Shown piece by piece: positions 61,101 through 64,000 of a DNA stretch of 64,000 bases; position 1 is the stretch's first letter, and each line of letters starts with the position of its first letter. Position numbers: made by a program. Source of the DNA: Escherichia coli (lineage in GTDB: Bacteria; Pseudomonadota; Gammaproteobacteria; Enterobacterales; Enterobacteriaceae); NCBI RefSeq assembly GCF_050920415.1, contig NZ_CP169310.1; one strand, given 5' to 3'.

Positions 61101-64000
61101 AAATAGCGGTTTTGCTGACACCAGTCTGCGCAGAAATGCGCGGGTACGACAGTGACTCGTCAAATCTCAGCTGTAGCACACGCGGGATTAATTCCGGATT
61201 ATCTGCCAGTACCGCCTTTCGTGCATTCATCTTAAATGTCCTTTTACTGCGAAAATGGACATTGGTATCGGAAACAGGAAAGGGAGGCGAAAGACGGTGA
61301 AGCGCTTACCATCAAGGCCAAGGGCGGTTAAGATATCAAAGTGAAATGAGTGCCGCTCCGATTAAGTGAACGGTATTTCACTGGTATCATTTTTTACTGC
61401 CTCATCCGGCGAAAAGATGCTTGATAAAGAATTAATCTCGTGAATATATATCACGAGTATATACTTTATCTCTGACATCCATTAATTCATCTGTAATTCT
61501 GTTCGCGAGTATAATGTCTGACTTTTTTTTGAATACAGGCAATTCATTGACTAATATTAAATCACTTACTGTTTTATTTTGCAATATTGGTTCATATATA
61601 ATAATAGATATGTCTCTTGACTTTAGTTGACGGATGATATCCATAACGGCAGACTCACGGAAGTTATCTGAACCATTTTTCATAATAACTCGATAAAAAC
61701 CCACTACTTTATGTTTTTTTTCCAATACTCTCTGTACAATAAAAGATTTACGTGTATCGTTTGCTCTCACTGTAGCAGTAATAATATCGCAGTGTATATT
61801 TAGTTTATCATAGTTTGCTTTCAGTTGTTTCGTATCTTTTGGCAGACAATATCCACCATAACCAAATGATGGGTTATTATAATAATCACCAATTCTTCTA
61901 TCCAGACAGACACCTCTGATTATATCTTTAGTGTTCAGCCCCGTAATTTCAGCATAGGTATCAAGTTCATTGAAAAATGCCACTCTTGTAGCGAGAAAAG
62001 CATTGGAAAATAGTTTTATTGCTTCAGCTTCTGCAGGCTCTGTGAACAAAACGGGTACATCCCTTTTCATTGCAGCATTTTTCATAATACTGGCAAAATG
62101 CCTCGCGCACTCTGAACGCTCTCCGATAATAATTCGAGATGGATAGAGATTATCATATAGTGCTTTCCCTTCACGTAAGAATTCTGGCGAAAATATTATT
62201 TTGTCAGTGCAATATTTATGTCTGACTTTTTTTGTAAATCCAACAGGGATCGTTGATTTAATGATTATCACTGCCTGTGGATTAAATTTTACCACATCTT
62301 CTATAACTGACTCCACAGAAGCAGTATCAAAGAATCCTGTATTAGGATCATAATCAGTTGGAGTAGCAATTATAACATAATCAGCATCTAGGTAAGCTTC
62401 ACTTTTATGCGTGGTTGCTTTAAAACAAATATTCCCATTTTGGAATACCTCCCGTATTTCATCATCATCAAGCGGTGAAATTCGTTTGTTCAACTGCTCA
62501 ACCCTAATGGCATCAATATCAAATGCCGTCACATTATGATAACGTGCAAGAAGTAGTGCATTGGATAACCCAACGTATCCAGTTCCTGAAACGGTAATAT
62601 TCATATTTCACACCATAAAAATAACGATTATTCAGTTAAATTTTTATTTCTACTTCTAGACCGACTGAATATGCAGGGGAACTGCGGGGAGAATTTTCAG
62701 TAGATGATGCCCGAAAACGCTCTGATGGCATAAACATCCCTAGCAATAGCTCAGTTTTTATATTTTTACTAAATTCGTAGCCCCAGATAAGATCTATTTC
62801 ACTCCCGAGATCCAGAGTAGAACTATTGTCATAACGGGACTTCAGGTCTGGATCATGAGAAGATAAAAAATCCCTGTCTGATTGTCTATAATAATGATAT
62901 ACAAGATCCAGTGAACTGCTTGGGGATATATCCATTCCAGTGCCAACCGTCAGGATACGTATATTTGTCAACTCTGGAGATAATGTATTACCATAAATAC
63001 TGAATTTAGTATTTCCACCAAAGCTGGCTTCATTCGACTGCAATCCGGTCTGATGATATTTTTTACTGGCTATGGCGTAACCCAGAGTAAAGCGGCTGCG
63101 CGATGGACTGTTATGAATCCAGGTAAGCCCTGCATCAATTACCCTCCCCTGATATTTTTTTTCGGATTTTTCTGCATACATTCCTCCGACCTCCAGCCAG
63201 TGCCGCCATCCCGTATCCGATGTACTGTGGGAACGTATCCCGTAAAAAGACTGACGCTCATATACATCATGCGTGTTTTTATTTACAGCAAAATAAATAC
63301 CGGTATCCCAGTCCTTTTCCACACTGTACTGCAAAAATGCAGATTGTACGGATATCACACTTTTGTTACGTGTTGTATCATCAAGCAAATCTCGCTGCCA
63401 GTAATTCACACGTCCTGCCACCATCTCCACCTGCCAGTCATCTTTTTTCCAGCGCCCCCATATACCATCAAGATTTTCATCAAAAAGCCATTCTCTGACA
63501 TCGCGGTACAGCCACCGCCCGGCTCGAATTTCTGCTCCGACTTCACGCAAACTTCCCCCTATATATCCCTGAGTCAGTTCCAGTCGGGTTTTATGTTCTT
63601 CTGGTTTACCGGAATCCCTCCTGGTTTTGTTTTTCAGTTCAGCTTCCGCCACACCATACAGAGAAGACTTTCTGGCAATCTCAATTCTTAAACGATATTG
63701 TGGCTCAAATTCATGTCGGTTTTCCTGCTTTTGTCCCTTCCTTAATGTTCTGTTCCGCCAGCTCTCGCCTTCCAGCTTCATTGTAGAATGAAACCGTATC
63801 AGTTGTTCCCGGTTACTTCTGTCCCCGGACAGACTGTTTTTTTTTGGACGAAATAACTCATTGTCAACAGACTCTGAAGCCTGTACCGGAACTACTCCAC
63901 AAACAAAAAACAGAAGAAAATAACCACAGAATCGACCGGAACCGTTTCTGAACATAATTAAAAATACTCCATGCACTTTTCACAATAAGCAAGCAAAAGT

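Follow-up and report, generated by a model that had tools for sequence, protein, structure and literature searches.

A plasmid operon of Escherichia coli ending in an AlgE-family outer-membrane protein and Ugd, with a probable role in the export of a short anionic glycan

The stretch of Escherichia coli DNA discussed here (the window) comprises 64,000 nucleotides (nt) of contig NZ_CP169310.1, assembly GCF_050920415.1, and ends in two neighbouring genes on the minus strand, one encoding a predicted outer-membrane protein (OMP) and the other, downstream of it in the direction of transcription, a UDP-glucose 6-dehydrogenase (ugd). Judged from the sequence, this pair is the 3' end of a co-transcribed, intact eight-gene operon that is cut by the window edge. 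The operon probably directs the synthesis and export of a short, phosphorylated anionic glycan or glycoconjugate, in this case with glucuronic acid (GlcA) as a constituent, which would be assembled in the cytoplasm, exported by an ABC transporter and released through an AlgE-like pore. A preliminary description of the window had noted the two open reading frames (ORFs) and proposed that they form part of an acquired and probably incomplete locus for surface polysaccharide or lipid A modification on a plasmid. The features of the operon that lie within the window are the following.

61432-62604, minus strand: ugd ORF, ATG start, 390 amino acids (aa), last gene of the operon
62605-62635, minus strand: spacer of 31 nt from the stop of the OMP gene to the start of ugd, read from the sequence
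62636-63976, minus strand: mechanically called OMP ORF, GTG start, 446 aa
62636-63955, minus strand: likely OMP gene, 439 aa from the ATG at 63955, AlgE-family 18-stranded beta-barrel
63878-63955, minus strand: predicted signal peptide of the OMP, MFRNGSGRFCGYFLLFFVCGVVPVQA, with SE following the cleavage site
63958-64000, minus strand: 3' end of the second APH-fold kinase gene, 337 aa (full gene L001 23459-24472, equal to NZ_CP012500.1 155265-156278)

Both ORFs of the preliminary description were recovered with their domains confirmed, and the plasmid location is borne out by the last 3.5 kb of the window, which matches plasmid pCFSAN004180G (NZ_CP012500.1) at 100% identity; this IncFIA/FIB plasmid has a size of 225 kb and is typed as conjugative. 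The host of this plasmid, E. coli 09-00049, is a Shiga toxin-producing E. coli (STEC) O168:H8 from lettuce that is negative for the enterocyte effacement locus (LEE) and positive for ehxA and sta1, and the mean GC content of the plasmid is 46.3% (PMC5009963). Window positions are obtained by adding 40499 to positions of L001, the NZ_CP012500.1 locus (conversion verified). Reading on past position 64000, as had been proposed earlier, reveals six further genes of glycan type on the same strand of NZ_CP012500.1, encoding two kinases, an ABC exporter and three glycosyltransferases (GTs), so that the operon is indeed incomplete in the window.

NZ_CP012500.1 152739-162917, minus strand: operon of eight genes, with the OMP gene and ugd last
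Beyond the window, same strand: first gene, annotated GT28, 386 aa
Beyond the window, same strand: two GT4 glycosyltransferases
Beyond the window, same strand: ABC exporter, 604 aa, fused ABC_membrane and ABC_tran
Beyond the window, same strand: the other APH-fold protein, 428/441 aa
L001 23459-24472, same strand: APH-fold protein next to the OMP, 337 aa
L001 23459-25772 (NZ_CP012500.1 155265-157578), same strand: span of the kinase pair

The order of transcription is GT28-like, GT4, GT4, ABC, APH kinase, APH kinase, OMP and ugd. The reading as a single operon follows from the common strand and from stops and starts that overlap or nearly abut: the two GT4 genes overlap by 4 nt and the two kinase genes by 26 nt, the junction of the GT4 and ABC genes measures 11 nt, and gaps of 2 nt and 31 nt separate the kinase from the OMP gene and the OMP gene from ugd. 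The best sigma-70-like site, a candidate operon promoter (TTAAAA-17-TG-TATAAT), lies within an AT-rich spacer of 1 kb, ~60 nt 5' of the first gene. A terminator scan found nothing convincing between the OMP gene and ugd and no clear terminator for the operon, its one hit being a weak hairpin that overlaps the final codons of ugd.

Among 5,426 complete E. coli genomes, 17 carry the operon, always on a plasmid and at no less than 99% identity, and it also occurs on plasmids of 'Escherichia sp.' isolated from cattle and humans. A second lineage (L005-L007), known from metagenome and Sequence Read Archive (SRA) assemblies only, shares 87% nt identity with the E. coli operon. Homology between L001 and L005 begins exactly at the first start codon and ends exactly at the stop of ugd; the flanks are unrelated and include IS110 in the second lineage. 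All eight genes lack internal stops and show a dN/dS of 0.12-0.21 between the two lineages, ugd itself having a value of 0.14, and by these measures the operon is evidently mobile and under purifying selection. Its horizontal acquisition, as surmised in the preliminary description, is apparent from the sparse distribution on plasmids only, from the insertion sequence (IS) remnants on the ugd side and from the unrelated flanks in the second lineage.

The OMP is a member of the alginate export family (AlgE), but not of the alginate system. The profile search that had been proposed earlier matches it to Pfam Alginate_exp (PF13372) with 84.2 bits against a cut-off of 25.2 (E=1e-23, profile positions 9-391 of 395). 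Its AlphaFold2 model (pLDDT 86.3, pTM 0.82) has 18 strands, with residues 1-48 disordered, and in a Foldseek search against the PDB the top 17 matches are all AlgE (E ~2e-19), with a TM-score of 0.65-0.77 across two normalisations and of 0.69-0.77 for the best chains. The OprD/Occ porins rank behind AlgE in this search, with a query-normalised TM-score of ~0.5-0.57. A profile of the OMP family also recovers AlgE by sequence (E=2e-19), and two motifs, LR.GR...R.D..W.D.N and QQTGL.SN..F.G...GE..ELSNL, are common to the family and AlgE; the invariant OMP residues R147 and R154 sit in the motif that aligns to AlgE LRFGRQRLRED. Neither an OMP family unrelated to polysaccharide export nor a lack of further glycan genes, which had been named as evidence against the proposed locus, was found. 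Searched singly against the PDB, the sequences of the OMP, the kinase and the GT28-like protein gave nothing useful, and profiles or fold searches were needed. Homologs of the OMP are rare: a set of 5.8 billion proteins contains 59 clusters of them at 90% identity.

The 446 aa given for the OMP in the preliminary description hold for the mechanical ORF, whereas the likely protein has 439 aa and starts at the ATG at 63955. This start is preferred because it lies 2 nt past the stop of the upstream kinase gene, which ends TAT TTT TAA (junction TAA-TT-ATG), and because it yields a conserved, signal-peptide-like N-terminus: MFRNGSGRFCGYFLLFFVCGVVPVQA, followed by SE after a cleavage site placed by eye, contains a hydrophobic segment at residues 6-28, and the 82%-identical homolog in L005 begins with MMIRNRSGRFCGCFLLFFVCGAVPVQA, likewise followed by SE. 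The GTG at 63976, in frame with this ATG, is an alternative start, and the signal peptide is kept from either. The RefSeq model of 381 aa (start 63781, NZ_CP012500.1 153943-155088) loses the conserved signal peptide and is probably too short; the annotation should be lengthened to regain it.

The two E. coli kinase ORFs both match Pfam APH and correspond to the N- and C-terminal halves of what is elsewhere a single protein of ~760 aa, with the break in a variable linker. The second ORF has a GGAGGA Shine-Dalgarno sequence 5 nt before its GTG, and the split, the 26-nt overlap and the GGAGGA are all kept in the second lineage, at ~13% nt divergence. In the comparison of the two plasmid lineages both halves have a dN/dS of ~0.2, and the protein is also split, independently, in Motiliproteus (L028) and in L071. 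These observations rule out a frameshifted pseudogene, and the split kinase is evidently a functional two-gene form. The catalytic-loop and metal-binding motifs (HxD...Q, D-x-D) are invariant in both halves, as HGDFSADQ...DWD and HRDFYPDQ...DFD. The family is large, with at least 150 cluster representatives (50% identity) matching full-length at E<1e-168 and 2,301 at E<=1e-30. A model of the fused twin kinase (pLDDT 90) has the mycobacterial maltokinase as its top PDB fold (E=8e-10), followed by glucosamine kinase and then by choline, methylthioribose and aminoglycoside kinases, all of them small-molecule kinases, and the modelled fold suggests a sugar-type substrate class. The likeness to the maltokinase Mak/Pep2 of the GlgE alpha-glucan pathway includes the extra N-terminal subdomain, and one GT4 weakly matches the maltose-1-phosphate synthase GlgM. 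However, identity to Mak is 14% at a target-normalised TM-score of 0.48, the tandem two-kinase architecture is not a Mak feature, and neither TreS nor GlgE occurs in any cassette inspected. The twin kinases are, as far as the model allows, sugar-kinase-like proteins and not Mak/Pep2 family members.

The family profile of the first GT finds the donor-binding half of MurG (E=3e-9) and also the GT1 enzymes YjiC and OleD, and Pfam Glyco_tran_28_C is matched by 16 of the 17 family members. The solved GT4 structures nearest to the other two transferases are BshA, MshA, sucrose-phosphate synthase, GlgM and PimA/PimB', which mostly use small phosphorylated or acidic acceptors or lipid head groups; this is weak evidence, the PDB being a biased sample. 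The best NCBIfam matches of GT4a are exopolysaccharide (EPS), colanic and teichuronic transferases, all under the cut-offs. The exporter fuses Pfam ABC_membrane (PF00664) and ABC_tran (PF00005), its best NCBIfam matches are MsbA models, and it is the only one of the eight operon proteins with transmembrane helices. Faint matches to GT4-conflict and TCAD9 models raised a defence or 'conflict' system, which was rejected, as PADLOC gave generic ATPase/kinase-motif matches only.

The same genes recur in distant bacteria in the order GT28-like, GT4, GT4, ABC, a single double-APH protein of ~750-790 aa and OMP, for example in Jejubacter (OMP 53% identity), Brenneria (42%) and a metagenome-assembled genome (MAG) of Burkholderiaceae (35%). 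A survey of one genome per species yielded 79 loci, in which the partners were detected with the E. coli proteins. All five partners are present in 28 of these loci, and 23 of the 28 have them on the same strand and in the same order; partial cassettes account for a further 27, some of which are on short or truncated contigs or match weakly. Full-partner loci are found in the Enterobacterales (Tenebrionibacter, Enterobacillus, Serratia, Brenneria, Erwinia, Pantoea and Enterobacter) and elsewhere in Thauera, Lampropedia, Paracoccus, Sphingorhabdus, Motiliproteus, Competibacteraceae, Planctomycetota, Nitrospirota and Bdellovibrionales. The six genes of Jejubacter stand between mepM and lpxM-pykA-hexR-zwf, which adjoin each other in E. 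coli K-12, and for this reason the cassette looks like a clean six-gene insertion. By gene content, the first six genes form a self-contained cassette that is evidently conserved across Gram-negative phyla.

Natural fusions within the cassette join the twin kinase to the ABC protein (P0315, L093), to a GT4 (P0322) or to a sulfotransferase (P0247; L091/L092, L091 9001-12387), which argues that the kinases would work physically close to the exporter. The accessory genes differ by lineage, with ugd on the E. coli plasmids and a sulfotransferase or methyltransferase elsewhere, and these enzymes would all add or modify charged groups. L093 (6322-12302) also encodes a protein combining DUF5666 and Alginate_exp (10458-12302), followed by a methyltransferase. 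DUF5666 (PF18914) recurs with the OMP family as an N-terminal fusion or directly downstream (L004 11637-13094; P0056, P0059; L093) and is lacking in the E. coli version; a role as periplasmic partner domain is possible. A mechanical ORF of 1221 aa in L089, a Bdellovibrionales draft MAG (4944-8609), combines two APH domains with Alginate_exp and would join cytoplasmic with outer-membrane domains, possibly as an artefact of frame or assembly.

The product of 61432-62604 is, by domains, motifs and alignment, most likely a UDP-glucose 6-dehydrogenase. It carries the three UDPG_MGDP_dh Pfam domains (PF03721, PF00984 and PF03720), each above its gathering threshold, passes TIGR03026 and aligns over its full length with Klebsiella pneumoniae Ugd 3PHL (58.7% identity, 512 bits), including the NAD-binding motif GTGYVG (residues 7-12) and the catalytic Cys motif GGYCLPKD. 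Solved Ugd structures score 395-512 bits against it, compared to 117 bits for GDP-mannose dehydrogenase. It resembles the enterobacterial housekeeping Ugd (PmrE/Udg) in length, domains and catalytic motifs (59-62% identity), and its nearest relatives outside its own lineage are the housekeeping enzymes of Salmonella and Citrobacter, at 61-62% identity. It differs from them in its score of 568 bits with PRK15057, under the NCBIfam equivalog cut-off of 757 bits, in its location on a plasmid, in a GC content at third codon positions (GC3) of 24.6% and in belonging to an orphan lineage known only at the end of this operon. The preliminary description gave both genes a very low GC content; this is true of ugd, which at 34.7% falls within the lowest 3.5% of 1.2-kb windows, but not of the OMP gene, which at 43.2% is at the 43rd percentile (window mean 45.5%).

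Furthermore, the GC content of ugd is ~10 points under that of the rest of the operon in both plasmid lineages, between which the protein is 79% identical, and its dS of 0.87 is about double that of the other operon genes (0.33-0.45). Of all the loci inspected, only three cases have a ugd-type gene in the cluster: the E. coli plasmid lineages, where it closes the operon, one Brenneria locus, where it stands at the front (52% identical), and, possibly, L053 (32% identity). The position, the composition, the dS and the identity of 52% compared to 61% suggest that ugd was recruited separately, before the split of the two plasmid lineages. Ugd is not part of the core, but a lineage-specific addition to the conserved six-gene cassette.

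Taken together, the gene set is best accounted for by the synthesis and export of a short anionic glycan. At the cytoplasmic face, and on a lipid or soluble acceptor, the MurG/GT1-like GT and the two GT4s would build a short glycan or glycoconjugate to which the two APH-fold, sugar-kinase-like domains would add phosphate. The plasmid Ugd would supply UDP-glucuronic acid, with one of the transferases presumably adding the uronic acid. The MsbA-type half-ABC exporter would then carry the product across the inner membrane, and the AlgE-type 18-strand barrel would let it out through the outer membrane, as a hydrophilic anion whose size or charge would be too great for general porins. The genes with their order, intactness and purifying selection, their families and folds and their distribution are observed; the sequence of the steps, a small and anionic product and transport in the outward direction we infer. 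Within this model we favour a defined oligosaccharide or glycoconjugate over a long polymer because a polymerase, a chain-length regulator and a periplasmic scaffold are lacking, while three GTs and two kinase domains are present.

Three routes for polysaccharides across the outer membrane have been distinguished: the Wza-type outer-membrane polysaccharide export (OPX) proteins of Wzx/Wzy- and ABC-dependent pathways, a 16-18-strand barrel with a tetratricopeptide repeat (TPR) protein in synthase-dependent pathways, and a composite of a short OPX protein and an 18-strand barrel with a polysaccharide co-polymerase (PCP) (PMC9601211). AlgE-type barrels have so far been tied to synthase-dependent systems or to short OPX partners (PMC9601211), and the cassette has neither. 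The Myxococcus EpsX/EpsY composite translocon (PMC9601211) likewise places an AlgE-like 18-strand barrel outside a synthase-dependent pathway, but it needs a D1D2-OPX protein, a PCP and Wzx/Wzy, none of which is in the operon or cassette. Pfam and NCBIfam searches of the E. coli operon and the gene content of the conserved cassette gave no synthase, polymerase, TPR, OPX, PCP, Wzx/Wzy, ABC-2 transporter (Wzm/Wzt/KpsMT) or initiating phosphoglycosyltransferase.

The alginate system of Pseudomonas aeruginosa shares with the operon Pfam PF13372, the 18-stranded fold (TM-score 0.69-0.77), the sequence motifs and a nucleotide-sugar 6-dehydrogenase encoded in the cluster. It differs in that the OMP is ~15% identical to AlgE, that the operon lacks Alg8/Alg44, AlgK and AlgX/G/L/I/J/F, that the dehydrogenase is of the Ugd and not the AlgD type (512 compared to 117 bits) and that the inner-membrane step is an MsbA-type ABC exporter. 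None of the eight operon proteins matches the families Alg8/Alg44, AlgK, AlgX/G/L or AlgD, and the annotated neighbours are a serine protease autotransporter (SPATE) of Enterobacteriaceae, fimbrial genes and fdnGHI. An alginate-like pathway is ruled out by the lack of alg genes and by the type of the dehydrogenase.

In the ABC-dependent capsule and O-antigen pathways (KpsMT-KpsED; Wzm/Wzt), as is proposed for the operon, soluble GTs finish the glycan in the cytoplasm before an ABC transporter exports it. A kinase, WbdD, modifies the glycan ahead of export in the O9a system. The operon departs from these pathways in that its transporter is a fused PF00664 half-transporter and not of the ABC-2 type, and in the absence of Wzz and Poly_export domains (framework in PMC9601211). 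It also lacks a PCP, an OPX protein and KpsS/KpsC, and its outer-membrane component is a beta-barrel. By its gene content, the operon appears to resemble the ABC-dependent pathways in logic while failing their defining components.

The strongest competitor, though an unlikely one, is a classical capsule or exopolysaccharide of high molecular weight, in which the GTs would build a long anionic polymer that the barrel extrudes as AlgE does alginate. AlgE is the closest protein in fold and in sequence family, Ugd is typical of acidic capsule and colanic-acid loci, and the nearest NCBIfam models of GT4a, below their cut-offs, are the EPS, colanic and teichuronic transferases. Against it stand the absence from the operon and cassette of every polymerase or synthase, Wzx/Wzy, Wzm/Wzt/KpsMT, PCP, OPX, TPR and initiating phosphoglycosyltransferase component, the MsbA type of the exporter and the presence of three GTs and two kinase domains, which suit a defined short structure better. 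The surface polysaccharide locus of the preliminary description is accordingly plausible from the glycan-type gene set, but no canonical polysaccharide pathway fits it.

The assembly of the lipopolysaccharide (LPS) core employs the GT4 WaaG, the kinases WaaP and WaaY and the flippase MsbA, and thus has parts like the GT4s, the two kinases and the MsbA-type exporter of the operon. By this logic, the product could be a phosphorylated glycolipid retained in the envelope: a lipid would be glycosylated by an enzyme similar to MurG or monogalactosyldiacylglycerol (MGDG) synthase, extended by the GT4s, phosphorylated and flipped by the MsbA paralog, leaving the barrel an accessory. The first GT is indeed nearest to MurG, a lipid-acceptor enzyme, PimA and PimB' are among the nearest solved GT4s, and MsbA models are the top ABC matches. 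We nevertheless regard a retained glycolipid as improbable, as the operon lacks acyl- or lipid-synthesis genes and a conserved hydrophilic AlgE-type pore is hard to square with a lipid that stays in the membrane. The GTs have no transmembrane helix or obvious membrane anchor, although they may bind peripherally. Compared to LPS core assembly itself, the operon is also without lipid A or Kdo genes, its kinases are maltokinase-like and not WaaP-like by fold search, and its outer-membrane part is AlgE-like and not Lpt.

Uptake and salvage, with the barrel admitting an oligosaccharide from outside for phosphorylation by the kinases in the manner of maltokinase or NahK, would agree with the salvage-type sugar kinases being the best kinase folds and with the 18-strand OprD/Occ relatives being uptake channels. 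This is highly improbable given that three biosynthetic GTs are invariant in the cassette, that the ABC protein is an exporter-type fusion of transmembrane and nucleotide-binding domains with no substrate-binding protein, and that glycoside hydrolases and phosphorylases are absent from the cassette. The least credible proposal is that ugd, required as pmrE for L-Ara4N synthesis in E. coli and Salmonella and unlike its neighbours in composition, serves lipid A modification or the general supply of UDP-GlcA and adjoins the OMP gene incidentally: arnBCADTEF is absent within 20 kb either side, both plasmid lineages inherit ugd with the other seven genes as a block ending at the ugd stop (dN/dS 0.14), and Brenneria independently carries ugd in the same cassette. 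The lipid A part of the preliminary description is rejected as very unlikely, there being no arn/pmr genes within this distance.

Several observations weigh against the synthesis and export of a short anionic glycan as the function of the operon. The only documented cargo of AlgE-type barrels is a polymer, alginate, and the related 18-strand OprD/Occ barrels are uptake channels. The OMP is encoded alone, with the partner genes absent, in 24 of the 79 loci surveyed, and one cassette (L091/L092) is without an adjacent OMP. The match between the kinase and maltokinase is remote, the candidate promoter is a match to the consensus only, and no description of the cassette or of this gene combination was found in the literature.

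On the plasmid, past the promoter spacer, lie a SPATE-type S6 peptidase and K88-like fae genes, and on the other side of ugd lie IS66 remnants and then fdnGHI. The IS66 assignment comes from thousands of plasmid matches annotated as IS66 transposase/TnpB over query positions 100-799 of the interval 60500-64000. Together with a 51-aa ORF, the remnants would mark the junction of the acquired block between fdnI and ugd.

60600-61300, strand not set: IS66-family remnants, operon boundary on the ugd side, by similarity to plasmid sequences
61075-61230, minus strand: 51-aa ORF, MNARKAVLADNPELIPRVLQLRFDESLSYPRISAQTGVSKTAIFSLVKRFH, resembling a helix-turn-helix fragment of a transposase or resolvase
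55929-60525, plus strand: fdnGHI (formate dehydrogenase-N), on the plasmid
Window ~51715-51933; L001 1-3316 and 32190-43501: nearby cargo regions

The nearby cargo comprises the heat-stable enterotoxin gene sta1, a module of gentisate 1,2-dioxygenase, a major facilitator superfamily (MFS) transporter and a LysR regulator, a 1279-aa S6 (SPATE) autotransporter and a K88 (F4)-like fae fimbrial operon. The fdnG ORF of the plasmid is unbroken over 1016 aa and has Cys197, encoded by TGT at 56517-56519, in the sequence QARLCHGPTVA. At this site chromosomal E. coli FdnG has a TGA-encoded selenocysteine (U196), and the plasmid FdnG looks like a Cys-type, selenium-independent paralog.

The conserved six genes constitute a widespread, unnamed cassette in which an AlgE-family barrel beside an MsbA-type exporter and a twin kinase would represent a new architecture among glycan export systems. 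If a phosphorylated glycan is exported, this would be a new type of pathway and a new kinase family in envelope glycobiology. It is possible, though we advance it only tentatively, that the cassette is an undescribed envelope-spanning route of glycan secretion, which combines an MsbA-type exporter with a stand-alone AlgE-type porin, dispenses with OPX, PCP, TPR and synthase components and has a twin sugar kinase that gates or charges the cargo. In that case, the route would have been captured, along with an extra Ugd, by virulence plasmids of STEC and ETEC (enterotoxigenic E. coli), and its product could affect colonisation or the interaction with the host. With export of a phosphorylated glycan, the operon would also stand for an unstudied surface or secreted factor, carried on large virulence plasmids by LEE-negative hybrids of STEC and ETEC in food and by cattle and human isolates of cryptic-clade Escherichia.

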